Assembly (NCBI RefSeq): GCF_024223415.1
Contig: NZ_CP100500.1
From: Escherichia coli
GTDB taxonomy: Bacteria > Pseudomonadota > Gammaproteobacteria > Enterobacterales > Enterobacteriaceae
Reading direction: 5' to 3' (one strand)
Length of the DNA stretch: 64,000 nt
Every line of letters starts with the position of its first letter. Position 1 is the first letter of the stretch. The position numbers were made by a program, and so were the translations under genes. The notes under the pieces are model-generated. The model did no database searches. It saw nothing but the letters and a program-made list of their open reading frames with translations, and was not told the DNA's origin. Positions 7,669 through 44,085 of the stretch are shown here, one piece after another.

Positions 7669-10600
7669 ATGAATAAAGTTTATTCCCTTCGCTACAGCGC
7701 TGTGGCCCGGGGCTTTATTGCTGTATCTGAGTTTGCGAGGAAATGTGTTCATAAGTCTGTCAGAGGCCTGAGTTTTCCGGTTTTATTACTGTCCCCCGTA
7801 CTTTTCTCTACAGGAGGCCTTGCGGGAACAGTCAATAATGAACTTGGCTATCAGTCATTTCGTGATTTTGCTGAGAATAAAGGTATGTTCCGCCCGGGAG
7901 CAACGAATATCGCCATTTATAATAAGCAGGGAGAGCTTGTCGGCACGCTGGAAAAAGCGGCTATGCCGGATTTCAGTTCCGTAAATTCAGGAAACGGTGT
8001 GGCGACACTAATTAACCCGCAGTATATCGCCAGCGTGAAACATAACGGGGGATATACAAACGTCAGCTTTGGTTATGGTGAAAGCCGTTACAATATCGTG
8101 GACCGGAATAATGCGGCGTCACTGGATTTTCATGCTCCCAGACTGGATAAACTGGTGACAGAGGTTGCCCCGGCTGCGGTGACGGCGCAAGGGGCAGTGG
8201 CTGGCGCATATCTGGATAAGGAACGTTATCCTGTTTTTTATCGTCTTGGCTCCGGAACCCAGTATATTAAGGACAGTAACGGACAGCTGACACAAATGGG
8301 AGGAGCATATTCCTGGCTGACTGGCGGGACTGTCGGTAGTCTGTCATCCTATCAGAATGGAGAAATGATTAGCACCAGTTCAGGTCTGGTTTTTGATTAC
8401 AAACTTAATGGTGCAATGCCCATTTATGGCGAGGCCGGTGACAGTGGTTCGCCTTTATTTGCTTTTGATACTGTTCAGAATACATGGGTTCTTGTTGGTG
8501 TTCTCTCTGCGGGGAATGGAGCGGGGGGCAGGGGAAATAACTGGGCTGTTATTCCACTGGATTTTATCAGACAAAAATTTAATGAGGACAATGATGCCCC
8601 GGTCACATTCAGAACATCGGAAGGTGGTGCGCTGGAGTGGGGCTTTAACAGCAGCACCGGAGCTGGCACGCTGACACAGGGAACCACCACATATGCCATG
8701 CACGGGCAGCAGGGAAATGACCTGAATGCCGGTAAAAATCTGATATTTCTGGGACAGAATGGACAGATTGACCTGAAAGACAATGTTGCACAGGGGGCAG
8801 GTTCTCTGACATTCCATAATGATTATACGGTTGCAACTTCAAACAACAGTACCTGGACCGGTGCCGGTATTATTGTGGATAAAGGCGTGTTCGTAAACTG
8901 GCAGGTTAACGGTGTTAAAGGCGATAACCTGCATAAGATTGGTGAAGGTACGCTGACGATACAGGGCACGGGTATCAATGAGGGTGGTCTGAAGGCCGGG
9001 GACGGAACCGTTGTTCTGAAACAGCAGGCAGACAGTAACGGGCAGGTGCAGGCCTTCAGTAGTGTGAATATTGCCAGCGGACGACCGACAGTAGTGCTGA
9101 CTGATGACCGGCAGGTAAATCCGGATAACATCTCCTGGGGATACAGGGGAGGTATTCTGGATGTTAACGGTAATGATATTGGCTTTCACGAAATAAAGGC
9201 GGCAGATTATGGTGCTCAAATCCACAATGGCAGTAACAAAAATGCAATAATCTCTCTGGTTATGCATGATGCCATTAAGTGGACCGGGAAAGATACACCA
9301 AGAATTTTAGGTCGGGTTTATGAGTATTTCAATGATGAAACGCAGAAGACTGAATTCTTTATATTAAAAACCAGCAGTATTGCGTGGTCTCCTTCGCCTG
9401 GAGAAAAATTTTTTCCGGATATGTTCAGAGGTGCTGATTATTTTAATACTCTTGAGGATGCGGACAAAGAGGCCAGAAAAAATACACAATATATTTTCCA
9501 TGGTAAATTAACCGGTAATATCAGTTTTAACCCGAAGAGTGCCGGTACGTTTGTTATGGATGGTTCTGCTGATATGTCCGGAACCTTCACCCGGGAAAAC
9601 GGGCGTCTGACACTGCAGGGTCATCCGGTTATCCATGCATACAATACACAGTCTGTGGCTGACAAACTTGCTGCCAGTGGAGACCATTCGGTTTTGAATC
9701 AGCCCACGTCATTCAGTCAGGAGGACTGGGAGAATCGCAGTTTTACCTTTGACAGACTGTCACTGAAGAACACCGATTTTGGCCTTGGCCGTAATGCCAT
9801 GCTGAACACCACGCTTGAAGCAACAGATTCGACTGTCACACTGGGCGACAGCCGGGTCTTTATTGACAAAAACGACGGTAACGGTACGGCTTTTACGCTG
9901 GAAGAAGGCACATCAGAAGCGGTGAAGGATGCAGACCGTAGCGTGTTTAATGGCAGTGCTGTTCTGTACGGGAAGACGACGCTGGATATCATGAACGCAA
10001 CCTTTAATGGTGATATCAGCGGTCATGCCGGCTCGCATGTGGAGTTGTCGCGCCGGAGTCACTGGAATATGACGAAAAGCTCCACGCTGGATTCGTTCAG
10101 AAGCAAAGGCGGGACGCTCTCCTTTGTGACAGACAACTGGTCGCCGAAAACGCTGACGGTAAACACACTGCATGCCAGCAGTATGAATATCGCCATGGGG
10201 GTCAGCACCGCCGACAACACGGGCGACCGGATTGATATCCTGAATAAGGCAACGGGGGGACATAACACACTGGACCTGTCCTCCCTGTTTGATCAGACTG
10301 TCACACTGAAAAATGACCTGACTCTGGCATCTGCACCGGTCGGAACTTCTCACGGGTACTTCTCCTTTGCCAGCCTGAACAGGGGGTTTACTGTTTATAC
10401 CCCTGACACACAGGTGCAGGAGAAAGACGGCAGAGTTTACTGGCAACTGAAAAATAACGCTGGTCTGGCGGACTCACAGGCACAACCGGTATCGGAAAAT
10501 GAAATCCGGATGGTTGCGGCGGATGGTGATAGTGGTAACAACCGCGCGGATGAATCTGGTTCCGCTGTTTCCGGAAAGAACTCAGAGGTTACCGTGAAAG

Positions 10601-30594: not shown

Positions 30595-31413
30595 TCAGCG
30601 CATACTCACCAGCAGCGTTTCCGCCATCACCCACAATGCACGATTGAGCTTAATGTCGGTATCAATGCTGTGAATGGCCCGGGTATGGATACGTTTTCCT
30701 TTTGCGCTGCGTCCCTGAAGACCGCCTTTGAGCATATTCTCCTGGATGGTCTGATAAGCACTCCACAGGTCCCTGCCGTAATCCTCCCGGCGTCGTGGTG
30801 TCAGAATGTCGGCGGTGGTGACGGGCTGATGTTCGTCACCATAACGGTAAGTCAGTGCCGCCTGTGCCAGCGCCTGACGAGCCGGTGGTGGTAAAATCAG
30901 CGACTGCATGGCATCACGCTTCTCCTCAATCCGGTCAAACACGCCCACAACCTCGTAAGCCCCTTCGATGACCCTGTCCACCACGTTTCCCCGGTGCGGG
31001 ACACGCACCTCTCCGAGAGACTGACCACAGACACATCCGTTCTGACACACGAACCGGAAGTAACCCGGCAGCATCTGGTAGCTGGAGGTACCGTCATGGG
31101 AGTTCAGCAGGATGATTTCAGGAACGTGCTGTCCGTTTATCTCCCCGTCACGGCGCAGACGCAGCATGTGCTTTGTGTATCCCCGGCGTCCCGGGTCACG
31201 CACGCGGGTCTGGCAGGCAAAGAACGGCTGAAAGCCTTCCCGCTGCAGGCTTTCCAGTACGGTGATGGTGGGGATGTATGTATAGTTCCGGCTCCGGGAG
31301 GTGTGCTTATCTTCCCCGAAAATCCCGGGCACATGGTGCATCAGCTCTTCACGGGTCAGCGGACGGTCACGGCGTATCTGGTTCGCATAACCGAAACGAC
31401 TGGCTAATCGCAT
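30595..31413 (-). CDS. DUF932-domain protein (YfjQ/YafZ family)
   Basis: 272 aa; conserved position and architecture in CP4-like islands. Confidence 0.7.
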   Translation of the reverse strand: MRLASRFGYANQIRRDRPLTREELMHHVPGIFGEDKHTSRSRNYTYIPTITVLESLQREGFQPFFACQTRVRDPGRRGYTKHMLRLRRDGEINGQHVPEIILLNSHDGTSSYQMLPGYFRFVCQNGCVCGQSLGEVRVPHRGNVVDRVIEGAYEVVGVFDRIEEKRDAMQSLILPPPARQALAQAALTYRYGDEHQPVTTADILTPRRREDYGRDLWSAYQTIQENMLKGGLQGRSAKGKRIHTRAIHSIDTDIKLNRALWVMAETLLVSMR

Positions 31414-31597
31414 ACTTTGCTCCTTATCGGTGGTTAATATTTACTGATGTAATAAATGAAAAAGCCGCGTCTCCCGGGGAAGACGCGCCTGATGGATGAA
31501 ATGAATGAGGGTTTACCGAAGTCCTTCAGCATTGAGGTGAAGCAGCCGGAAAGGTGTTACCTGGTCATCGACGGGTCAGGTCAAAAAGCGGGGACAT

Positions 31598-32482
31598 TCA
31601 GAACAGGCGATCCCACAGTGTGACCAGCAGGCGGATAATGCGATCACGGGCTTTGCGCAGAAGCTGCAGCATCCAGGCCGGAAAGCTGAACCGGGCAATG
31701 GCAGCGTCAAAACTCTGGCCGATGGCGTCACCAAAAGCCTGCTGTGCGTGTTGCTGATCCTGCGCAGTGCGCTTTTCATTCCGGATATGCGAATAAACCG
31801 CGCTGGTTGCCTGTGGTGGCAGGGCGTGGATCATCAGAGACACAAATGCCGGAAGATTCCAGCCGGCAGGGGCGGCTATGGGGAGTACCGGAAATGATGA
31901 AGGGAACAGGGTTGCCACCCGGGCTGTCACCGTCGCCAGTGAGAGTTCCTGCTGACGGGATGGCGTGCTGCTCTGGTTGTTCCATTCTTCAGCCGGGTGG
32001 ATGCGATCGGCATGGCTGAGAACAAACAGAAAACGCGAGGGATCGGCACCTTCATTCAGTAAAAACTGATGCATGGCGATGTCGGCAGCATACGCACGTT
32101 CATCAGCCCGCAGGATCCAGATAATCAGATCCAGTTCGGGCAGTAACTGACTGTAAAGTGCCCGGTATTCCTGATCATGCTGTGGTGTTTCGCCAGTGCC
32201 GGGCAGATCGACCAGCGTCATTCTTCGTTCACCGGGCTGAAAGGTAAGACGATGAGCCTGACGGGTGCAGCCGTTCAGCGGATGCGTGGCGCAGACACGG
32301 GACTGAAAAATGGCATTGCACAGGCTGCTTTTTCCGGCACCGGATTTACCCATAATGCCAATAACGGGTTCGTACTGAATGACGCTGCGAAGATGTTCAA
32401 GGATTTTCTGGCGAATTTCTTCAGGAAGAAAGGTCAGATGTGACTTTACGTGTGCGGAGAGGGAAGAATGGCTGAATGACAT
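31598..32482 (-). CDS. YeeP/YkfA/YfjP-family GTPase
   Basis: 294 aa; P-loop IGIMGKSGAGKSSLCNAIF; DLPG G3 motif; typical island GTPase. Confidence 0.8.
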   Translation of the reverse strand: MSFSHSSLSAHVKSHLTFLPEEIRQKILEHLRSVIQYEPVIGIMGKSGAGKSSLCNAIFQSRVCATHPLNGCTRQAHRLTFQPGERRMTLVDLPGTGETPQHDQEYRALYSQLLPELDLIIWILRADERAYAADIAMHQFLLNEGADPSRFLFVLSHADRIHPAEEWNNQSSTPSRQQELSLATVTARVATLFPSSFPVLPIAAPAGWNLPAFVSLMIHALPPQATSAVYSHIRNEKRTAQDQQHAQQAFGDAIGQSFDAAIARFSFPAWMLQLLRKARDRIIRLLVTLWDRLF

Positions 32483-32582
32483 ACCGTTATCCTGTTGATT
32501 TCACTGAACCGGATCACATTAATCCGGCCTATCAGTCAGGTAATATGGACGTGAAAATTTTTCCATTGACGGGAAGAAGAGT

Positions 32583-33806
32583 ATGGCTAAAAACAAAGGT
32601 ATCTGTCGGAATAAAAAATGCAGCAATCCTGTTTCAGAATTTGATGAGGCAAATGCCCTGAGGTTATGTGATGATCATTATCAGTTATGGAAACGAAATA
32701 AAGAGAACCGTCGGGTCAGGAATATTTGTCGTATAATCAGTAAATATGACAAAAGTCTGGACCGGGAGATATTTGACAGAGTAATAGATGCTGCAAGAAA
32801 TCAAACGGGAAAGAGAATTGTTGAGGACGCAAAAATATTACATCAATTGCGCAATTCAAAGCAAGTAAGAAAAAGTCTTCATAATGGAGTACTCCGGTCA
32901 CGGGAATGGCTCAATACACAGGAGTTACTGAGAAGAAAAAATATATCTGTTACAGGTGACTCATTTAAATCTTACATAAAGGATATTGTCAGATTATATT
33001 GCTATAAGTTTCTCTACAGCAGAGAATATCTTAATGAAAACGCATGCAAAAAACAATATCAGAGAGTTATTAACCCCAGAGAATTTAATGTTCCGATACT
33101 TCAACTTGAAGTTGCATGGATCAATAATAATTGCCGTTCAAGTGATTCAAGCTCTGATATTATCATCCTTCCCAGGATGATAAGAAGAATGGTTGTATTT
33201 AATGATACGAAGATAAATAAACAATTAGAGGAAATGTTGGGGGGGATAGCACGAAAAAAAGTCGCAGTAAGGAATAAAGGCGGTCTCTATACCAGAATAA
33301 AAAAAGAAAATGATTTTCGTTCTATGGATAGATTTATGGTGGAAATCGAAAATATCATAAGACCTGAAATATTTCCGACATCAATTTACCCGCCTTTTTC
33401 ACTTTCATTTATCGAGAGAGAATTGCCACTACTGAATCTGGCGCACTCACAGTACAAAAGAGCAATAAGTAAAAAAGTGGCGAATTCAATTTTTTATACT
33501 TTGCGAAAAACTCACGTGGCATTATGGCTGCATCTTGAAATGTTTGCTCTTGTGGCATTCATCAAACTGTATACAGGAAAAGGGTTTGAATTCATGAAAA
33601 ACATGTGTGTATTTATAGATTATGATAAAGGGATAATAAAATCCACGCATGAAGAACTGCTGAGTGAAATTAAGTGTAACATTCAGTTGAATTTAAAGGT
33701 GAATTCTGATAATTTTCCTGAATTAATAGAAGTATACAATTCATGCTTTAGTAAAAATATATTGTTGTATGATGTTCAGGATGATGGTTTTAAATGGTGT
33801 TTATGA
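32583..33806 (+). CDS. AT-rich orphan hypothetical protein with N-terminal Cys/His cluster
   Basis: 407 aa, Lys/Asn/Ile-rich, far lower GC than its surroundings; N-terminal CRNKKCSNP...CDDH could be a zinc-ribbon; no recognisable family. Confidence 0.5.
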   Translation: MAKNKGICRNKKCSNPVSEFDEANALRLCDDHYQLWKRNKENRRVRNICRIISKYDKSLDREIFDRVIDAARNQTGKRIVEDAKILHQLRNSKQVRKSLHNGVLRSREWLNTQELLRRKNISVTGDSFKSYIKDIVRLYCYKFLYSREYLNENACKKQYQRVINPREFNVPILQLEVAWINNNCRSSDSSSDIIILPRMIRRMVVFNDTKINKQLEEMLGGIARKKVAVRNKGGLYTRIKKENDFRSMDRFMVEIENIIRPEIFPTSIYPPFSLSFIERELPLLNLAHSQYKRAISKKVANSIFYTLRKTHVALWLHLEMFALVAFIKLYTGKGFEFMKNMCVFIDYDKGIIKSTHEELLSEIKCNIQLNLKVNSDNFPELIEVYNSCFSKNILLYDVQDDGFKWCL

Positions 33807-35304
33807 TGTGAAAATATTAAATTTATATTACATTTTAATTATCGACAAAAAACACATAAAGAAATCTAAAGGGAATGAGCGTCAAATGAGCTGATATAGC
33901 GCCAGTTTGGTATGGTCATGTGATTTGATGATTAAAGCTTACGGATAATAACACTCCTCTGTGAGCCATATAAATGAGCATGCCATAATCGTCAGTTCAG
34001 AGATAAAACTGACTGAATGATCTTATGTTATAGTAAGCAGTGTTTACCGGATACGATGACTTATCTCTCTCACATCATATGGATTCACTTTCATGGGGTA
34101 AAGCGATGGGACTACAGACGCTGATTATGATGGTTTGCTGTAAAGTTAGCACAAGTTTTTGCTGTACAGAATACGGAGTAAGAAAAATAATTCCAGAGTA
34201 AATCTGCTCTGCTTTTGAACAGAAAAGATTCATGCTTACCGTGAAAAACTGAAACCAACATTCAGTCTGCATGGATGTCTTAAGATGTTGAGAATGTCGG
34301 ATATGGTATTATATACACCTTTTCCATTAGGTCCTTTTATGTTTTCATTAAGTCGTTTTGTATGTATTCCTCCAGTGATTCATTAGTGCCTGTTTACGCA
34401 TTTACACACTTTTCCCATTAATCTCCTTTAAATGTGTTTCATTACGCATTGCTGTACACATTTTTGAACTGATACACATCCAAGTTAGTAAACCTGTCAG
34501 TTCTGATTTTACGTTAACTAAATCAGTTTAATGCTGCTGTAAAACAATCCTTCCTGTTTAAGCAATCAATCTGCTATTCGATTTTACTGATGTGACGTTT
34601 AACCTTTCCTGAGCTTTGGTTGTTTGTGGTTTTTGGTTTGTGTTTCGACGTTAAGCTGAGAAAAGTATCTTTACGCTAAATCAACCCGAACTTTCCTGAG
34701 GTGATCTGACGTTCTTTTCGATGTGCTTACGACGATTCTGTTAAACGACTTTCTGGATGTTTTGATAACAATCAGATTGAGGCATTAACGATTCCTGACG
34801 TTTTGCTTTTTCATGTAAGGTCATTGTTTTCGTCATGATGTGGTTTTTCTTCTTGCATTGCGAAAGTGTGATGATTGGTTTTGGTTTTTTGATTCAGATG
34901 AGATTTACGTTATCGATGGTTAATCGTTTTTATGGTGAGTAGTGAAACGTAACATTTTCGGGATGAGAAAATCGATTCTGATGGTGATGGGGATGATCGT
35001 GTTACGGCGTTATCTGTAAACAGGTTTTAAACGTGTCATTCGCATTCGTGATTGAGTTGTGTGATTAAGCTGTAGGTTTTGGCGTTGTTGTTGATTTGCA
35101 TTGCCAGGAAGCGTTCTGGTTGCGTTTCTGGTGTTTTGTTCGAATGTTCTGTGGATCCTTTTCCCTTCAGGCTTTTCTCGTCGTCCATGTCGTTTTTAAA
35201 TCCATTCATGCTGTTGTTGCGTGTTTTGCTGCTGTGTGCAGGATTATCTTTTCGTTCCGGGATGGTTTGTTCCGTTTCAATCACTCTTAATCAGAGAGTT
35301 GTAG

Positions 35305-35379
35305 CATTGCTTAATGACATGATGCCGTAAAGTTTTACCGCGGTGATTAATGATGTGAAGTCAATCCAAATCAACGGAG
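35305..35379 (+). promoter_or_regulatory. conserved leader motif upstream of Rep-like genes (second copy at 42311-42344)
   Basis: cattgcttaatga...tgtgaag...tcaa...cggag occurs just before the start at 35390 and again about 150 bp before the start at 42494; the 35k copy has an internal duplication of ttaatga. Confidence 0.4.
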
Positions 35380-35389
35380 ATCTCTCATC

Positions 35390-36121
35390 ATGAATCAACC
35401 AATACACAATGCTTACTGGTTATCCCGTTTTGACAGCCTTCTCGACAGTGCCCTGTCGCAGCACCGTGCCGTCTCGTTAATCCGGGTGGATTTACGTTTC
35501 CCTGAGTATATGCCTGTCACCATCATGGATCCCGATCCGGATTCAGCGGTGATTTCTCGTTTTTTCGAATCCCTGAAAGCCAAAATCCAGGCTTACCAGC
35601 GGAAAAAACGACGTGCCAACAAGCGTGTGCGTGCAACCACTCTGCGTTATTTCTGGTGTCGGGAGTTTGGCAAGGAAAAAGGCAGGAAACATTATCACGT
35701 GATATTGCTGCTCAACAAAGATACCTGGTGCTCGCCAGGGGATTTCAGCGAACCATCTTCGCTGGCGACGATGATCCTGGAGGCATGGTGCAGCGCCCTG
35801 CATCTTGAGGCCTGGCAGGGTAATGGACTGGTTCATTTTTCCAGGCGGACGCCTTTCCGTAAACCGACATCATCTGATGCTCGCCCTTCTTCCGATGATA
35901 CGCCTTTGTCGGGTGGATGTTCTGATACCAGGAAGGCTTCAGACAAAAAGCCGGGTGAAGCCGCTGTTCTCTGGATCAAGCGTGGTGATGTGGCAGCGAT
36001 GCAGAAAGCCCGGAAAAGAGCCCGTTATCTCGTGAAAAATCAAACGAAGCAGCATAATGGTTCCGGTCAACGTAATTATGGTTGCAGCCGTGGGCCGGGG
36101 CGTCTGCTGGATGGCAGGTGA
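35390..36121 (+). CDS. YagK/YfjJ-family protein (inovirus Gp2-like, HUH Rep-like)
   Basis: 243 aa; HUH-like motif KHYHVILLL; RBS ggag; preceded by a 1.5 kb noncoding leader. Confidence 0.65.
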   Translation: MNQPIHNAYWLSRFDSLLDSALSQHRAVSLIRVDLRFPEYMPVTIMDPDPDSAVISRFFESLKAKIQAYQRKKRRANKRVRATTLRYFWCREFGKEKGRKHYHVILLLNKDTWCSPGDFSEPSSLATMILEAWCSALHLEAWQGNGLVHFSRRTPFRKPTSSDARPSSDDTPLSGGCSDTRKASDKKPGEAAVLWIKRGDVAAMQKARKRARYLVKNQTKQHNGSGQRNYGCSRGPGRLLDGR

Positions 36122-36631
36122 AGTCTGTAAAACGGTATCCGGTGCCAGGGGGGGGATATCACGGTAAGGGCGTCAGCCAACGTCTTTCGCTCGTATTCTG
36201 ATAACCCGTCCTGAAGTCATGTATCTGCTTCCATTCTCATGTTCATATTTCTCTTACGCTTTCACTGTCTGTCATCGGAAGTACCGATTTATTTTGGTGC
36301 TGCGCACTTACGGCCATTCACGGAAGAGGATTGTGGTGAACAGTAGGAGTCTGGCTGCTGGCGAGGGAAGGTTCAGGACTGGTATGGGGTTTAGTGCTGG
36401 AGGATGACTTTGAATCCCGGATTGACCAGTGAGGGGGCAGTGAGAGGATGCTCTGGTGTAACAGGTCTGGATTACAAAATATAAAACCGGTTGTACACTC
36501 GTAACGGGTAAAAGGATACGGGCAATAACACGTGGTACCCGGTGAGACTGGCTCTTGTATCACATTACCGGGAATATTCTGGCAGGTGAAATGTTCTGAT
36601 AAGAATCATCCTGAGGGAGGATACAACGGAT

Positions 36632-37084
36632 ATGAACGTTATTGACAGCCGCATTCGTGATGTGAAATTTGGTGAAAATGTGAAAGTCGTCATGCCAGTA
36701 AACCTCTATGAATGTGAACTGGGGGATGATGTTTTTATCGGTCCCTTTGTGGAAATACAGAAGGGATGCATCATTGGCAACCGGAGCCGAATTCAGTCCC
36801 ACAGTTTCATCTGTGAGAACGTCATTTTAGGTGATGCCTGTTTCATCGGTCATGGCGTAACTTTTCCTAATGATCTGTTTAAGTGTGGTGGTCCCGATAC
36901 CTCTGCAGAAAGCTGGATACGCATCGTATTAGGTAACACTGTAACAGTGGGTAGTGGAGCGACCATTTTAACAACAGAAATTTGCAGTGGAGCTGTGATT
37001 GGTGCTGGTAGTGTGGTTACAAAGCCCGTGCTGGTAAAAGGCGTGTATGCGGGTAATCCGGCCAGACTTTTGAGAACGCTTTAA
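36632..37084 (+). CDS. hexapeptide-repeat (left-handed beta-helix) acetyltransferase
   Basis: 150 aa with repeated [LIV]-G-x-x-x-x hexapeptides (IGNRSRIQSHSFICENVILGDACFIGHGVTF...); RBS gaggga. Confidence 0.75.
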   Translation: MNVIDSRIRDVKFGENVKVVMPVNLYECELGDDVFIGPFVEIQKGCIIGNRSRIQSHSFICENVILGDACFIGHGVTFPNDLFKCGGPDTSAESWIRIVLGNTVTVGSGATILTTEICSGAVIGAGSVVTKPVLVKGVYAGNPARLLRTL

Positions 37085-37335
37085 TTATTGAATCCAATAT
37101 TAAACCAGACAGACAGTAAACATAATACTGTTCCGGATATCGCTTGCCGCAGGAACCTCCTTAACATTCAGGAAAATAAAGCTTTTATTGCTGCTATGTA
37201 CCATAAGAGACAGAAGTAATTGATTTACCAGTATTACACCTGTTGAAGCTATGGTTATTCACCTTTTATTTTTTGAGCAGCGTATTTATACTTCCCGGAG
37301 CATTGTTTAAATATAATCGCCCGGGATTGATTCGT

Positions 37336-38241
37336 ATGGCTCTTGAACAGGAAATCGCAAACCTTGTAAACGAGTTTGTCGCGGCTGGTCGTCCATCCTG
37401 TCGTGACCAGACCTTTGATGAACGCCGTGCCGGATATATCGCAAGTACTGCTCTGGCCGGCGATACAGAAACCCGCGTAAACATCAGTGATGTGATTATT
37501 GACGATGTTTTATTGCGCATATTTTCGCCTTTAAACGATGATGGGGTGTTATCCGCAATTGTCTATTATCATGGTGGCTGTTTTGTCAGTGGTGGTTTTG
37601 TAACCCATGATAATCAGTTGCGACAGCTTGCTTTCCTGAGCGGTTGTCGTGTCATTGCTGTACAATATCGATTAACGCCGGAACATATTTATCCTGCGGC
37701 ACATGACGATGCTGAACATGCCGCTAATATTGTGTGGCAACACGCAGAAATGTTGAAAGTTGATCGCAACAGAATAACGTTAATGGGGGATAGCGCTGGG
37801 GGACATCTTGCACTGATAACAGCACTGCGGGTTAAAAACATCGGTCAGTGGTTACCGCGAAAATTAATACTTATTTACCCTATGCTGGATGCCACAGCAT
37901 CATGTGATAGTTACAAATTAAACGGTAGTGACTATGTGCTGACAGCAGACACGTTTCTTAGTGGTTATGAGGCTTATTTTTCCGGTCAGGATTTAGAACA
38001 TCCGGAAGTGAGTCCATTATTCAGGAATGATTTCAATGGGTTACCACCTGTTCATGTCATCACAGCGGAATATGACCCATTACGCGATGAAGGTGAGGAA
38101 CTGTTTTCCCGTATGATTCAACAAGGAGTAAAGTGTACCGCCCAGCGTTATCTCGGTGTCATTCACGGTTTTTTCCAGCTTGGCGGCATTAGCCAGACAG
38201 CCCGTAATCTGATGCAGGATATTTGTGGGATTGTTAAATAA
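37336..38241 (+). CDS. alpha/beta hydrolase, esterase/lipase (HSL/Aes-like) family
   Basis: Oxyanion-hole motif HGGCF (YYHGGCFVSGG) and nucleophile motif GDSAGG; start placed at the internal Met MALEQEIANL (track ORF begins at 37243). Confidence 0.65.
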   Translation: MALEQEIANLVNEFVAAGRPSCRDQTFDERRAGYIASTALAGDTETRVNISDVIIDDVLLRIFSPLNDDGVLSAIVYYHGGCFVSGGFVTHDNQLRQLAFLSGCRVIAVQYRLTPEHIYPAAHDDAEHAANIVWQHAEMLKVDRNRITLMGDSAGGHLALITALRVKNIGQWLPRKLILIYPMLDATASCDSYKLNGSDYVLTADTFLSGYEAYFSGQDLEHPEVSPLFRNDFNGLPPVHVITAEYDPLRDEGEELFSRMIQQGVKCTAQRYLGVIHGFFQLGGISQTARNLMQDICGIVK

Positions 38242-38487
38242 TCACGTAACAAGCAGCTACAGGTAAATTAGCTGAGCATGCATCCATCATTTGTCGCTGC
38301 GATGCCAGACTTCCGGATGCTCATATGTTGTTTTACTTTTGTCAGCATAAATGCTGCGTCGGGACTGGTGAATGGAGATAAGCCATTTTATTATCGACGT
38401 CAGAGAACATACTCACAATGTCGGTATGTTTCTGAAATTAAGGGTAAGTTTTGCGCTGATTACAGTATGCGAAGGAGATCTGGCACA

Positions 38488-40080
38488 ATGAATCCCGCTT
38501 ATATGCAATCCCCCCATTTCCCGGCAGATTTAACATACAGATTATTTCCTCGTAAGCTTGCGTATCTCATTGACGACTTATATGAAAGTACCCAACTTCC
38601 GCTGGATCTCATTTTTAATACTGTACTGGCAACGCTCTCACTCTCCTGTCAGTCATTGGTTGACGTTGTTCATCCTCACACCAACATGCCGGAACCCTGC
38701 TCACTTTATCTGTTGACAATCGCAGAGCCAGGCGCGGGAAAAACAACGATAAACAGACTGGTGATGAACCCCTGTTACGACTTTGCCGATCGACTCATTC
38801 AACAATACGAAGAGAGAAACAAAGATTATAAAACTGAACTACAGATCTGGAATACCCGACAGAAAGCTCTTTCTGCCAGTTTAAGAAAGGCTATTAACCG
38901 GGGGTATCCGGGAGAACAGGAAGAAGAGGCGCTGCGTAATCACGAAAGAAATAAACCGACACGTCCGGTTCGACCGAATTTTATCTATGAAGATGTTTCA
39001 CTTAAAGCGCTTGTGGAAGGACTCAACGAGCATCCGGAGGCGGGAGTTATTTCTGATGAAGCGGTAACTTTTTTCAGAAGCTATCTGAAAAATAGTCCTG
39101 GTCTGTTGAATAAAGCATGGAGTGGACAACCGTTTGATTTTGGACGGGCTGACGAGAAATATCATATCACTCCACGCCTGACATTTTCGCTAATGTCCCA
39201 ACCGGATGTTTTTACGGCTTATATAAATAAAAATGATGTACTGGCCAGGGGAAGCGGATTTCTTTCCCGGTTTCTGTTCAGTCAGGTTGTAAGTTCTTCC
39301 TGGATACGTGATTATACGAGAGGTGAGTTCAGAACAATACCAACCCTGGAGAATTTTCATAAAAAGATTAACGGATTTCTGTTAAGCCATAACATTAATT
39401 CCCCCGGCATGAGCACCGAAAGGAAGACATTAAAACTTGCGAAGAAAGCGTTGGGGGAGTGGCAGGAAAACCAGAGTAAGATTGAAAGCAAAGCGCTTGC
39501 AGGAGGGGAGTGGGAACACATCAGAGATATTGTTCTGAAAGCAGGTTCTAATATACTGAGGATAGCGGGTTTATTCACCTTCTATGGCAATAAAGATGCT
39601 GAGGAAATTGAATCAATTGCGCTTTTTAACGCCATGCATCTCATGGACTGGTATCTGGAGGAGGCAAGCGCAATATTTTATCCCATGTCTGAGCGACGCC
39701 AGTTTGAGCAGGATGCCTGTGAACTGTATGCATGGATTATGACCCGAATCAGGCAGAATAACTGGTGTGCTATCAGGAAAACAGATATTGAAAGATATGG
39801 TCCCAATCGACTGAGAAGAGCAGAAAAGCTTACACCTGTACTCAATCAGTTAATTGCTCAGAATTATTTCTGTATCATCAAAATGCGCTCGCATCAGGCA
39901 CTTTATGTTTCTGTTCGTAACAATAATGGTTACCTCCTTCCTTTCGGCACAATGTCTTACGAACCGTTTGATGTTGTACCCTCCTTGTATAGTCATAATG
40001 CGAAAATATATCCCGTTAATATTCCACCGGAATTAATCCAGTCATTTGCGTTACCTTTTTCAGCCTATAACTTATTCTGA
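38488..40080 (+). CDS. DUF3987-like primase/helicase-type P-loop protein (YfjI-like)
   Basis: P-loop AEPGAGKTT; start placed at the Met with RBS aaggag (track ORF begins at 38278); typical partner of AlpA and Rep-like genes in P4-like islands. Confidence 0.65.
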   Translation: MNPAYMQSPHFPADLTYRLFPRKLAYLIDDLYESTQLPLDLIFNTVLATLSLSCQSLVDVVHPHTNMPEPCSLYLLTIAEPGAGKTTINRLVMNPCYDFADRLIQQYEERNKDYKTELQIWNTRQKALSASLRKAINRGYPGEQEEEALRNHERNKPTRPVRPNFIYEDVSLKALVEGLNEHPEAGVISDEAVTFFRSYLKNSPGLLNKAWSGQPFDFGRADEKYHITPRLTFSLMSQPDVFTAYINKNDVLARGSGFLSRFLFSQVVSSSWIRDYTRGEFRTIPTLENFHKKINGFLLSHNINSPGMSTERKTLKLAKKALGEWQENQSKIESKALAGGEWEHIRDIVLKAGSNILRIAGLFTFYGNKDAEEIESIALFNAMHLMDWYLEEASAIFYPMSERRQFEQDACELYAWIMTRIRQNNWCAIRKTDIERYGPNRLRRAEKLTPVLNQLIAQNYFCIIKMRSHQALYVSVRNNNGYLLPFGTMSYEPFDVVPSLYSHNAKIYPVNIPPELIQSFALPFSAYNLF

Positions 40081-40856
40081 AATAAACCAACACAGATGAA
40101 ACGAAAAAAAACAACATTCATTCGAAGGTTGGTGGTAAGGAGTTTGCATATCCTGCATCTGTGCAAATATTCACCAGTTATGGGGCGCGAACGAAAATTT
40201 CTCTGAAAAAATCGCTACGGTAGCAACAGTAGCAGCACATGCACCATGTCTGTTATTTGATTTTGTTTTCATAATGACCTGTTGTCAAAGCTGATTGAAT
40301 ACAGGAGTGTGCGCACTGGTGGAAGAGTGGCTTTCGTTTTTGGTTATTCGAAAGAAAATCGAAATATTGTTTTTAACATAGCTGAAGCTAATCATATAAC
40401 CATATTTTTTGAGTTTTTATATATAACTTTGTTTGATTCTTGTCGTAATGAGTGCTGGCGTATATGACGATGTCGCTCTCTTTCTGAATAACGAAAGGTT
40501 ATCAGTCTTTTACTGACAAGAGATGCTGTTCAGGTTTCAATGGGAGATTGAAGAAAAACGATTTGATATTTTCCGTGAGAGAATGTCTTGTCAGGTTCAT
40601 ATTCATAACGGATAATTTCTTATTTTCACTCATCAGACATGGATAATTTTAATTTAGGTTTATTACTATAATTAGTATCTGTTCCTTTATTTTTATCCAT
40701 CTATCCCTTTATTTTTCATCTATCTATCCTTTTATTATTAGTATCTGTATTTTTATTATTGGCATCTGTCTATTTATTTTTATCATTCTCTCCTCTCTGT
40801 CTTTACTCTCATTGCTCTTACTCTCATTCTGTTATTTCTACTCGTGTTATCGTGTT

Positions 40857-40944
40857 CACTCTATCACTCTATCACTCTATCACTCTATCACTCTATCACT
40901 CTATCACTCTATCACTCTATCACTCTATCACTCTATCACTCTAT
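40857..40944. repeat. 8-bp microsatellite (cactctat) x11 inside a pyrimidine-rich repeat-dense noncoding region
   Basis: Eleven perfect tandem copies; degenerate ~22-bp and ~14-bp repeats lie just upstream (40660-40856). Confidence 0.9.
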
Positions 40945-41689
40945 CCATCTCTCAATCATAACGATTGTCACTCATATGATACTCAGCCATGTTATTTTCT
41001 ACTGCTCTGCTGAGCTTATCTGTCTGTTCTCATCTTCAGTGAAACAGCACCTGATTTTACTCTTATCCATCATGAACTGTCTTTGTTCAACGATGATGGT
41101 ATGTCTGATATGTGTTAACCATTTTGATGGGTATCGTTGATTATCCGATGGTTAAGCTTCGATAAGGTTATCCATAGAACAGTGTGGGGTAAGCAACATG
41201 ATCCCTGATGATATTTGTTCCGTGTTGTCTTGTTGTTTAAGCGACAGGAAATATGTCAATGGCATGTTTTATTCTGCTGCCGTGAGCCATGCATGTTCTG
41301 AAGAACAGATTGAATGAGCGCATGTGAGTTTATTACGTTGGCCTTGTACACGTTTTTTTAGAACCACTGAGAGCAAGTTTGTAGTTTATGATGCTATTGG
41401 TCGTAATATGTTTCTTGAACTTTTGATCGTGGGTTTTTATCTCGTATTTTTCAGCATTTCTCGGTGTTGTATTGCGTCGATATTTTCTTTATTCCCGTTA
41501 ATATCATCTCGTCAGTGTCCATTCCTTTCATCACAATGCGTATCGTTAATAATCTGTTGTATCCATCCGCCTACAGCATGCCTGATAAATACCGTCTGTC
41601 AGTTATTACCGTTTTAGATCTGATTATGAGCGAAGGTATTCATTCGCTGACAGAACTTAAAACGTCATTAACTTACAGGAGTTATCAGC

Positions 41690-42240
41690 ATGCCTCAGTC
41701 TTACACACCAGACTGGTTTTTTACCGCCTTACTTGACCATCACATCGATCAAATGATGGCTCGCTATTCCTGTCTGCGGGCCTTACGGATGGATTTCTTC
41801 TACAGGAAAGAGACGCCTGATTTCTTACAACCTGATCACCGCTGGCTTGAATTGCAGTTGCGTATGCTGCTGGACCAGGTTGAACGGTTTGAAAATATGG
41901 TTGGTTTCTTCTGGGTGATTGAATGGACGGCTGATCATGGTTTTCATGCGCATGTGGTTTTCTGGATCGATCGTCAGAGGGTGAAAAAATATATCCCTTT
42001 GCGGAGCGGATAACCGAATGCTGGCGGGCTATTACGTATAACTGTGGTTCGGCGCACCGCTGTACATACCAGCCGCATTATGCATACAACATCAACATTC
42101 CCGTGCGCCACAACGATCCTGAAAGCATCGATAATATTCGCGGTGCCCTGCATTATCTGGCGAAAGAAGAGCAAAAAGACGGACTGTGTGCATACGGCTG
42201 CAGCGAAGTGCCTGAACGTCCTGCTGCAGGGCGACCACGC
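41690..42240 (+). pseudogene. YagK/YfjJ-family Rep-like gene, frameshifted
   Basis: MPQSYTPDWFF...DHGFHAHVVFWIDRQ (HUH-like HAH) then continues in another frame (...ITYNCGSAHRCTYQPHYAY...ALHYLAKEEQKDG...). Confidence 0.5.
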
Positions 42241-42493
42241 AAGCTTCACGTCTGAAGCTTAAACCCTGAACCTCCGCACCTGGAAACAAGCCATCGGTAA
42301 AAACTTACCGCATTGCTTAATGATGTGAACCGAAGTCAACGGAGTTCATTCACCCTGAATGTTCTTTCCTGATATTCCCGCTCAGCGTCGGTTCTTCACC
42401 TGTTCCATCAACCTCATCCGCAGCCTGTAACCCGTCAGCCCATCCATCCCCGGGCAGGACGCGTTGTGGGCTGCGCATAACGGAGCATATCCT

Positions 42494-43069
42494 ATGAATG
42501 CTTTCCCTTATTTCGACGACAGCATGGCCCCCTTCTGGCCTTCGTATCAGAACAAAGTTATTGGCGTTCTTGACCGTGCGCTGCGTGAGCAGTCCGGCTC
42601 CCGGATACGTCGTATCCTGCTTCGTCTGCCGTGGGAACCCGATAACACCTTCAGCAGCCGCAGGACCTGGTTCGGTATGGCCTTTATTGAAACCGTCAGC
42701 GACCTGATGAATGCAACCCCCGGACGTGACCTCTGCTGGCTCCTGACACGTCATCCTGAAAAGCTGGAATACCACGTGGTGCTGTGCGTCAGGCAGGAGT
42801 ATTTCGACGGCCCTGAACTGGATCGGCTGATTCTGGATGCCTGGAGCAACGTGCTGGGCTTCGCCTCACCGGGGGAAGCGGCACCGTATCAGAAGCAGAT
42901 TACCCGGGATGTGCTGCTGGATCCCCGTTCACCGGACTGCGAGGAACTGTTCAGAGACCTGATCTGGGCGTTCAGTGATTTCGCACGTGATCGCCGGGGG
43001 GTATACGATCCGGAAGCCCGTCACCTCGCCGGTAATCCCTGGTATCCCGGATCAGCAGGACGGCGCTGA
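42494..43069 (+). CDS. YagK/YfjJ-family-like protein
   Basis: Start at the ATG with RBS ggag (MNAFPYFDD...); ...EYHVVLCVRQEYF... region; sits between the frameshifted paralog and alpA. Confidence 0.5.
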   Translation: MNAFPYFDDSMAPFWPSYQNKVIGVLDRALREQSGSRIRRILLRLPWEPDNTFSSRRTWFGMAFIETVSDLMNATPGRDLCWLLTRHPEKLEYHVVLCVRQEYFDGPELDRLILDAWSNVLGFASPGEAAPYQKQITRDVLLDPRSPDCEELFRDLIWAFSDFARDRRGVYDPEARHLAGNPWYPGSAGRR

Positions 43070-43133
43070 ACATCATGTTCAGCCGTTCCCCCGAACTTAC
43101 ACATCCTTCCATTTCACCGAGGATATTCCGACC

Positions 43134-43367
43134 ATGTTGAGCACAACAACATCCCACGACAGCGTATGGTTGCGTGACGACGATCCCCTGATCGACATGA
43201 TTTTCATCACCAGTTTCACCGGCATGACCGACAAATGGTTCTACCAGCTGATGAGCGAAGGCAGGTTCCCGAAGCCCATCAAACTGGGCCGCAGCAGCCG
43301 CTGGTACAGAAGCGAAGTGGAGCAGTGGATGCAGCAGCGCATCGAAGCATCACGGGGAGAAGCATGA
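43134..43367 (+). CDS. alpA: AlpA-family phage regulatory protein (small HTH)
   Basis: 77 aa; ...LIDMIFITSFTGMTDKWFYQLMSEGRFPKPIKLGRSSRWYRSEVEQWM... is the classic AlpA/prophage CP4-57 regulator signature; RBS gagga. Confidence 0.75.
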   Translation: MLSTTTSHDSVWLRDDDPLIDMIFITSFTGMTDKWFYQLMSEGRFPKPIKLGRSSRWYRSEVEQWMQQRIEASRGEA

Positions 43368-43548
43368 AAGGTATTGTGATACCGGTTCGCTGGCAATGTG
43401 CAAACTGCCGGCGCTGGTATTGTGGTAATCCCCCCTGCCCCTGGTGCTGGCGACCTGCTGCACCGTCTGTCATTCCTCATCCTTCGCTGTAACAGGCATC
43501 GTACCGGTGCCGGCGTGCTTTCCTGTGCACCGGCACCGGTTCAGAAAC

Positions 43549-44085
43549 ATGCAAAGAGAGCAAATCGTGCAGATAACCGAAACCGTACTTTCAGAGCCGG
43601 TGGAAATCCGGCGTTTTATTCAGCAGGCGGTGGATCACTGGCCGCGTCTGCTGGCCGTTCAGTTCACACTTCATTCAACAGGAGGAAATTGTGACGGGAG
43701 GCAGATTCATGCGTTTTACTGGGCATTTTACCGACAGCTGAATCAGCGAAGCCATACCGGATATCCGTTACTGCCGGTGGTGCTACGCTGGCTGCGGGAA
43801 ACGACAGAAAGCACAGACAGCACCGGGATACGCTGTCTGTTGCTGATCAGCCAGGATCTCATTTGCCCACCAGGATCCAGAATGACGTCTGATGACGCTG
43901 ATTCGCACCTTGTGGCGTTACTGCAGCAGGCCGGCACCACACTCACGGCAGAAGGGCACTGTACGGTGGTATGCTGTTACAGGGTGGTGCGTGCAGCCAC
44001 ACCTGAAGGCGCTGAGTCACTCACGGCATTCAGAAACGCGTGCCTTTCGTTGGCCAGGCCCGTGATGGCCGGCATCATCCGCTAA
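43549..44085 (+). CDS. hypothetical protein (island-associated), start uncertain
   Basis: ORF 43444..44085; first ATG in a plausible context at 43549 (MQREQIVQITE...); no recognisable motif. Confidence 0.35.
   Translation: MQREQIVQITETVLSEPVEIRRFIQQAVDHWPRLLAVQFTLHSTGGNCDGRQIHAFYWAFYRQLNQRSHTGYPLLPVVLRWLRETTESTDSTGIRCLLLISQDLICPPGSRMTSDDADSHLVALLQQAGTTLTAEGHCTVVCCYRVVRAATPEGAESLTAFRNACLSLARPVMAGIIR

Follow-up and report, generated by a model that had tools for sequence, protein, structure and literature searches.

A swappable slot in CP4-57-like islands of Escherichia coli is mostly held by one protein family, putatively HNH-derived and in part probably nuclease-dead

We examined a 64,000-nucleotide (nt) stretch of DNA from Escherichia coli (RefSeq assembly GCF_024223415.1, contig NZ_CP100500.1), called the window throughout, and in it the plus-strand open reading frame (ORF) at positions 32583-33806, whose 407-amino-acid (aa) product we call X. 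To its left lies a divergent YfjP/YeeP-like GTPase gene, with a control region common to both genes between them, and to its right, beyond an AT-rich stretch, a Rep-like gene of the inovirus Gp2 (YagK/YfjJ) family. An earlier reading of the letters of the window (the sequence-only reading) had placed X between these two genes, and RefSeq annotation of near-identical loci agrees. Comparison of the locus across complete genomes revealed that X is the default occupant of a swappable slot, not one cargo among many, and comparison within its family points to descent from HNH nucleases.

The ORF proved to be real; it starts with ATG, and its coordinates were those first assigned to it. Compared with a 91%-identical E. 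coli allele, the gene is under purifying selection, with a ratio of nonsynonymous to synonymous substitution rates (dN/dS) of 0.28. The neighbours gave similar values in the same comparison, 0.22 for the GTPase and 0.30 for the Gp2-family gene, and by this measure the X gene evolves like that of an expressed protein. The constraint is uneven along the protein, with dN/dS values of 0.03 for residues 1-45, 0.05 for residues 169-207 and 0.64 for a basic linker. The product is basic throughout (isoelectric point, pI, 9.6) and contains 9.3% Lys, 8.1% Asn, 9.1% Ile and 8.4% Arg, which bears out its description as Lys/Asn-rich. The guanine-plus-cytosine (GC) fraction of the ORF is 0.34, versus 0.55 for the divergent GTPase gene. 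The sequence-only reading had given X a far lower GC content than everything around it; this is correct for the left flank and for the DNA beyond 35400, but not in between, because the low-GC block exceeds the ORF and runs from about 32400 to 35300, including about 1.6 kb without a conserved ORF.

We determined what occupies the slot beside the GTPase gene, which we found at 2,539 places in 1,882 of 5,426 complete E. coli genomes; a single genome can hold as many as six copies. Four types of occupant together account for about 97% of these places. Type A, which is X itself, was present at 1,065 places. Type B, at 816 places, is a 317-320-aa homologue of X without a zinc ribbon (hhalign probability 97%, E 7e-11 to 9e-12), and type C, at 516 places, is a 376-aa homologue with a zinc ribbon (hhalign probability 99.9%, E 1.4e-31). 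Type D, an unrelated 339-aa gene on the minus strand, was found at 72 places. The X family (types A, B and C) thus fills about 94% of the slots, and all six of the B and C copies that were sampled adjoin the GTPase gene. The type B slot also carries a convergent partner gene of 284 aa, to which type D is remotely similar (BLASTP E 8e-6). The C-terminus of the partner is weakly ribbon-helix-helix-like, matching the NCBIfam RepA regulatory protein at E 7e-5 and Pfam RepB-RCR_reg at E 0.26.

The edges of the slot are sharp. Homology between the window and islands of the other types ends at 32557, directly behind a conserved GGTAATATGG and 25 nt ahead of the ATG, and resumes at 34167-34185, so that X and about 360 nt downstream of it form a cassette. 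L010, the island most similar to the window, shares 99.2% identity with it up to 32557, 77% over 34167-35241 and 98.6% from 35321, and its slot holds a different gene type despite this near-identical backbone. The types appear to have been shuffled as cassettes between near-identical backbones by recombination, judging from these alignments. Allele types A, B and C are only 16-21% identical to each other. Type A is closest to genes of Klebsiella and Citrobacter, at 33-36% identity, whereas hhalign gives only about 17-21% with types B and C of E. coli. On this evidence the types appear to be older than the separation of these genera.

X DNA was present in 974 of the 5,426 complete E. coli genomes, 967 of which had full-length copies. 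An allele at 90-95% identity to X accounts for 928 genomes, and alleles of at least 99% identity for 35. A fragment spanning the junction between the GTPase gene and X was intact in 970 genomes, essentially all of the X carriers. Just one of the 1,065 DNA copies was on a plasmid, and a tblastn search with X gave no match in the phage collection or in PLSDB plasmids. Clusters of the protein hold more than 1,000 member sequences, all of 407 aa, and the listed records annotate the copies solely as "hypothetical protein". The family as a whole is small: only 43 representatives emerged when 5.8 billion proteins were searched with a word index and 1.84 billion representatives exhaustively with a HMMER profile. 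Foldseek against AFDB50 returned 20 family members and nothing else, and the named ones were all Enterobacterales (Escherichia, Klebsiella, Salmonella, Enterobacter, Providencia, Serratia, Lelliottia and Kosakonia). Both the protein and the structure searches thus confine the family to this order, and the label of orphan gene had to be dropped. A scan of genome contigs with family alignment A1 found two species-representative loci only.

Homologues at 33-36% identity to X hold the same position in Klebsiella and Citrobacter islands. The order GTPase gene (minus strand), a gap of 92-105 nt, the X homologue (plus strand), AlpA and YagK/YfjJ was found at five loci, one from Klebsiella michiganensis (L002), one from Citrobacter (L004) and three on contigs derived from the Sequence Read Archive (SRA; Logan assemblies L005, L014 and L018). 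A gene of X's own clade (clade 1, below) lies in the same place, divergent from the GTPase gene, in every sampled island of several genera. The orthologues in these islands are AT-rich as well (GC 0.28-0.33, versus 0.45-0.54 for the GTPase gene). Within the same loci, identity to the window was 34-36% for X, 53-68% for the GTPase, about 74% for DUF932 and 55-67% for RadC.

We obtained an AlphaFold2 (AF2) model of X with a mean predicted local distance difference test (pLDDT) score of 84.3 and a predicted template modelling (pTM) score of 0.72. According to the model, X consists of a zinc ribbon (residues 1-45), a basic linker, a beta-beta-alpha core with preceding helices (about 101-220) and a helical domain (221-407). 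The N-terminal Cys/His cluster has the spacing C8-x4-C13-x15-C29-x2-H32. Each of these four residues is at least 90% conserved among 31 family members that share 16-86% identity, the region is modelled with pLDDT above 90, and its dN/dS is 0.03; for these reasons the cluster is not a chance pattern, and the zinc ribbon that had been suggested as possible is upheld. The core consists of strands at residues 175-179 and 193-197 and a helix at 198-218; within X, only the zinc ribbon is more constrained. Blocks of the C-terminal domain have pLDDT values of mostly 76-97, with Y385 invariant and N386 and F389 at least 90% conserved in the 31 members. No structural match outside the family was found for the C-terminal 190 or so residues.

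The likely origin of the core became apparent from distant relatives. We divided the family into X's own clade (clade 1, 13 sequences), a distant clade (clade 2, 14 representatives, 16-21% identical to X) and a third clade. A clade-1 profile found clade-2 proteins among the 1.84 billion representatives at E 5e-17 to 4e-4, and Foldseek gave a probability of 1.00 between X and distant members, some of which are labelled "HNH endonuclease" in UniProt/AFDB. Clade 2 has the invariant motif LE(L/V)CHxYPNSxGGxNxxxNxxIAPxxINR, and the core region of X aligns to it. When a 49-column profile of this motif was compared with the Protein Data Bank (PDB), all nine matches were HNH nucleases (McrA, Cas8f-HNH, HNH-domain proteins and Cas9), aligned on the catalytic His, as in McrA "YLEVHHVIPLSSGGADTTDNCV", at individually marginal E-values of 0.08-1.5. 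Three clade-2 members weakly match a Cas9d model in the same segment (positions 554-600, E 0.019-0.062), and one weakly matches Pfam HNH_4 (E 0.013). The AF2 model of a clade-2 protein, P0039 (pLDDT 86.4, pTM 0.78), has a beta-beta-alpha unit at the positions aligned to X, in which H158 closes strand 1, N172 immediately precedes strand 2 and N181 belongs to the helix. X itself has the beta-beta-alpha fold of the HNH superfamily by prediction only. We read this combination of profile, alignment and model evidence as showing descent of the X family from HNH nucleases.

X differs from these enzymes at the residues that matter for cleavage. W179, D192 and R201 of X stand at the positions where clade 2 has the catalytic H, N and N. 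The general-base His at the end of strand 1 is present in 14 of 14 clade-2 sequences and in none of the 13 of clade 1, which have W, F, Y or K at this position. D192 takes the place of the structural Asn that precedes strand 2, and R201 that of the metal-ligand residue of the helix, which is Asn in clade 2 and Asn or His in HNH enzymes; both are invariant in clade 1. The HNH motif is degenerate in the third clade too. Distant members share the H...N...N signature of known HNH nucleases (McrA, PDB 6ghc; Cas8f-HNH fusions; Cas9 HNH_4), and the predicted core is common to both clades, whereas X matches no HNH model, with no significant hit to an HNH profile in Pfam or NCBIfam, and carries its zinc ribbon about 140 residues upstream of the core and not flanking it. 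Going by these substitutions, X is probably catalytically dead, its HNH residues having been lost.

It could be argued that X still cuts through a non-canonical site, for example E176 and D192 together with the Arg-rich helix, and acts as a site-specific nickase or endonuclease in replication or transfer of the island or in excluding competing elements. Its descent from HNH nucleases, the invariance of E176 and D192 in clade 1, the core dN/dS of 0.05 and the adjoining Rep/primase module, which would fit nicking at an origin, are in keeping with such a role. We nevertheless consider it very improbable: the general base has been replaced in all 13 clade-1 sequences, the helix Asn has become Arg, and the islands already have an HUH-like initiator of the Gp2 type. 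To our knowledge, no active beta-beta-alpha-Me enzyme lacks both the general-base His and the helix Asn.

Loss of the active site also raised the question of whether X is a functionless, decaying remnant of a selfish, free-standing endonuclease of the homing type that hitch-hikes with the island. An AT-rich, free-standing gene with a degenerate HNH motif between conserved genes has the look of one, yet the dN/dS values are 0.28 overall and 0.03-0.05 on the zinc ribbon and core, and full-length 407-aa copies persist in 967 genomes. Homologues in other genera at 33-36% identity keep the length, the position and the conserved motifs, and between the two E. coli alleles the non-coding DNA directly 3' of the gene is only 69% identical, versus 91% for the gene. 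Neither does the occurrence of the family resemble that of a homing endonuclease, with no intact motif and near-universal, not sporadic, presence in the slot. A remnant is, on this record, scarcely credible.

What X may do is suggested by the company its relatives keep. Clade-2 genes, which have an intact HNH motif, belong to the same island family and lie within the AlpA module, without a Gp2 gene, and they occur without any GTPase gene. Two such loci (L016 and L017) have the order AlpA, DUF3987 (YfjI), clade-2 gene and YfjT, and onward DUF932, antirestriction, RadC, CbeA and CbtA genes. In a third (L006), an integrase gene, DUF6387 and a small ORF precede the clade-2 gene, which is followed by DUF932, and in a fourth (L007) the gene lies between AlpA and a ParM-like gene. 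An integrase, AlpA and a DUF3987 primase are the defining set of the PICMI phage satellites (PMC10803314).

Taking the evidence as a whole, we tentatively prefer, as a possible role for X, that of a DNA-binding protein that serves the island's own AlpA/regulation or replication module. X is a resident of CP4-57-like integrative islands of Enterobacterales and not miscellaneous cargo. Such islands have YfjP GTPase, DUF932, antirestriction, RadC and CbtA/CbeA genes to one side, with AlpA, YfjI and YfjJ at the opposite side. The ancestral form, with its HNH motif intact, would have sat right after AlpA and a DUF3987 primase-like gene in islands without a Gp2-type Rep, and the clades with a dead HNH motif would be those in whose islands a Gp2-type Rep is present. 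X would no longer cut DNA and would act as a basic, non-catalytic and probably sequence-specific binder of nucleic acid, a role to which its pI of 9.6, its conserved zinc ribbon and its Arg-rich helix lend indirect support. The allelic divergence would then reflect type-specific recognition of a DNA site or a partner protein and not a change of function. The very strong purifying selection on the zinc ribbon, on the fold and on the helix of X with the sequence IRRMV is compatible with this proposal, and the weakly ribbon-helix-helix or RepA-regulator-like C-termini of the type B partner and type D are a possible hint of a regulator.

Several observations weigh against this DNA-binding proposal. 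The control region is the same for all allele types and so cannot be a type-specific target, and the zinc ribbon is not essential to the function of the slot, because type B has none. The association of an intact HNH motif with absence of Gp2, and of a dead one with its presence, amounts to 3 loci versus about 6. The HNH assignment of the distant clade rests on E-values that are individually marginal (0.013-1.5), and the E176-D192 pair of clade 1 could support a non-canonical active site. There was also no sign of immunity or incompatibility types: two islands of the same type were co-resident in 218 of 657 cases (0.33, versus 0.34 expected at random), a crude count that ignores phylogeny. Finally, hyper-divergent alleles and low GC are equally typical of genes of conflict and defence.

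We also weighed a role for X in anti-phage defence or abortive infection, either by itself or together with the divergent GTPase, in which the dead HNH/zinc-ribbon part would be a sensor or nucleic-acid binder and the divergence the outcome of an arms race with phages. In K-12, the equivalent CP4-57 interval, from YfjJ to the YfjP GTPase gene, carries abpAB and rnlAB and no X-family gene, and no homology of these genes to X was found. Anti-phage defence has been demonstrated for AbpAB (PMC10732053). The sequence-only reading had placed X at a variable-cargo position, and the interval does vary between islands in this sense; with a member of one family in about 94% of E. coli slots, however, the word cargo does not fit. 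Hotspots of defence genes normally alternate unrelated systems. X is always linked to the AlpA/replication module and not to alternating defence systems.

The composition and evolution of X do speak for defence: it is AT-rich and evolves faster than its neighbours (identities above), its allele types are extremely divergent and are common to several species, and recognised defence genes (type I restriction-modification, TIR, McrBC and OLD/UvrD) are carried elsewhere in the same islands. The GTPase adds a further point. Its N-terminal part is an Era/EngA-type G domain, and its C-terminal 100 or so residues (183-286) match LeoBC of the Eleos system in PADLOC at E 2.8e-7; this GTPase of the island backbone may be related, in a shorter form, to the dynamin-like LeoBC proteins. 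The match to Eleos (LeoA/LeoBC) is nonetheless partial and spans positions 458-550 of the 601 in the profile. Among the locus annotations that we examined we noted no LeoA-like gene, and X matches no Eleos component. The models of PADLOC-DB v2 matched neither X nor slot types B-D, and ten relatives gave nothing below E 0.03. The nuclease residues are lost in X, and clade-2 relatives do without the GTPase. Moreover, the GTPases are 88-92% identical where the X alleles differ by more than 80%, which is not the co-variation of partners. The family is absent from the phage collection and has no protein match in PLSDB, although the DNA search put a single copy on a plasmid. A defence role is unlikely on balance, and is now a less likely reading than a DNA-binding role within the island.

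The divergence of the alleles can also be accommodated by a more specific form of the DNA-binding proposal, by analogy with known regulators. The Stl master repressors of Staphylococcus aureus pathogenicity islands (SaPIs) and the cI regions of lambdoid phages are divergent "immunity-type" regulator cassettes, and the analogy to them is functional and not one of homology. As in those systems, a single gene (here X) is divergent from a long operon across a short control region, and barely alignable alleles are set between conserved flanks with sharp breakpoints. X differs in having no helix-turn-helix domain and no similarity of sequence or fold, in an operator-like region that is identical across types, and in showing no evidence of exclusion between islands of the same type. 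By this analogy, the X family might be an allele-specific master regulator or sensor of CP4-57-like islands, in which a DNA binder made of the dead HNH core and zinc ribbon is joined to a fast-evolving helical sensor. A type-specific trigger, namely a protein of a helper phage or incoming element, would release X, and the divergent operons would be held in check until then. We think this quite unlikely. The related idea that the types exclude one another (incompatibility) was dropped, being unsupported by the co-residence counts of 218 of 657.

Few accessory elements of E. coli are as common as the islands with this CP4-57-like backbone, which carry toxin-antitoxin, antirestriction and defence genes. 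X offers a handle on their biology as a candidate factor for specificity or regulation, whose three natural allele types can be compared with one another, and it can be removed from lists of candidate single-gene defence systems as a likely false positive. If X is a regulator or sensor, this would be a new use for a dead HNH fold; if it is a master regulator, islands regarded as cryptic prophages would be satellite-like and open to induction, in several types (A, B and C). The HNH fold element is known, and the X family, its architecture, its nuclease-dead state and its role as a swappable core gene appear to be undescribed so far.

Table 1. Features of the X locus in the window, with two genes of the same slot in other islands.
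Feature	Position	Strand	Basis
YfjP/YeeP-like GTPase, divergent neighbour of X	31598..32482	-	annotation of near-identical loci
Control region common to X and GTPase	32483..32582	.	100 nt; conservation across slot types
Allelic swap cassette (X and about 360 nt downstream)	32558..34170	.	breakpoints versus L010, L019, L020, L021
X coding sequence (slot type A)	32583..33806	+	ORF listing, ATG start, 407 aa
CCCH zinc-ribbon-like module (C8, C13, C29, H32)	32604..32678	+	conservation, pLDDT about 92, dN/dS
Putative HNH-derived beta-beta-alpha core, residues 172-218	33096..33236	+	AF2 model, alignment to distant clade
C-terminal, mostly helical family-specific domain, ending in YNSxFS motif	33243..33803	+	pLDDT, conservation
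AT-rich, strand-asymmetric, probably non-coding stretch upstream of Gp2-family gene	34171..35389	.	skew, broken ORF
Inovirus Gp2 / YagK-YfjJ family (Rep-like) gene	35390..36121	+	RefSeq annotation of near-identical loci
AlpA orthologue	43179..43358	+	tblastn, five AlpA proteins from related loci, 65-75% identity
Type B partner	L019:7265-8119	-	284 aa
Type D gene	L020:6409-7428	-	339 aa

The control region between the GTPase gene and X is conserved up to 32557 in islands of all four slot types. It includes the conserved GGTAATATGG, with a -10-like TAATAT at 32541-32546, and, about 40 nt before the start codon of X, GGTAATAT(A/G)G, which the Klebsiella and Citrobacter loci also keep. At 32509-32527 lies an inverted repeat with a 6-bp stem (CCGGAT-N7-ATCCGG), and the Citrobacter-type loci L004 and L005 have in the same place, just upstream of their position 10001, a hairpin of different sequence (CCTGGC-GTTGACA-GCCAGG), with TTGACA in its loop. 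These elements could be an operator and promoter, and it is their conservation that suggests promoter function. A scan for consensus promoters called no site upstream of X, and RNA folding of the intergenic region was no better than that of shuffled controls (z = -0.83).

Downstream of the cassette, the plus strand of the roughly 1.2 kb between 34171 and 35389 is rich in T and G; its AT skew falls as low as -0.41 and its GC skew rises as high as +0.34. With 33807-35389 as the query, parts of it were matched at 2,911 places in 1,877 E. coli genomes, mostly with 60-90% identity. The sole annotated ORF there (35036-35284, minus strand, 82 aa) is interrupted by stop codons in L008, L021 and L023, so that the stretch probably does not code for protein. 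It could serve the Rep-like gene as an origin or a regulatory region. A search of Rfam with 31000-37000 gave only a sub-threshold chance match, and the repeats found in 33800-35400 were short two-copy matches only.

Database searches with X bore out the earlier statement that it matches nothing recognisable: there was no match in Pfam, NCBIfam, PADLOC or PDB sequences, and Foldseek found no structural neighbour outside the family. Full-length profiles of family alignments A1 and A3 gave no match in PDB, and no fold search with the X model recovered HNH structures. A PHROG HNH match to X (E 0.56) covers residues 22-57, which lie in the zinc ribbon and not in the core, and we did not count it as evidence. 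The K-12 protein YfjH was tested as a possible relative and is unrelated. The UniRef/UniProt label "Reverse transcriptase" on the K. michiganensis member P0016 (A0AAX3CP38) has no Pfam reverse transcriptase domain or other support; it is probably a mis-annotation and was disregarded. Literature searches on family accessions returned nothing, and none of those on the backbone genes of the island or on YfjP/YeeP yielded anything that bears on X. One clade-1 homologue (L013, 30% identity) is on a contig titled "Chryseobacterium sp. 18061" (CACSKA010000007.1). All other members of named source are Enterobacterales, and the label may reflect contamination or a mislabelled assembly.

The right side of the island was surveyed over 35390-44000 with L010 as the annotated proxy. 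It holds two Gp2/YagK-YfjJ genes, an acyltransferase, an alpha/beta hydrolase, YfjI (DUF3987) and AlpA. AlpA lies directly downstream of X in the Klebsiella/Citrobacter-type islands and about 9.4 kb away in the window; a search of the window's interval from X to the Gp2 gene revealed no remnant of AlpA. Because AlpA and one Gp2 gene directly follow X in the related genera, the E. coli island looks like a composite or tandem of two backbone modules.

We also recorded defence genes elsewhere in the related islands. Beyond Gp2, the K. michiganensis island L002 carries a type I restriction-modification system and a NERD/helicase gene. A TIR-domain gene, a BrxR-like WYL gene and methyltransferases are present in L005, with McrBC beyond CbtA, and in L016 an OLD-family ATPase and a UvrD helicase adjoin AlpA. 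The real cargo hotspots of these islands seem to lie beyond the Gp2 gene and at the island ends.

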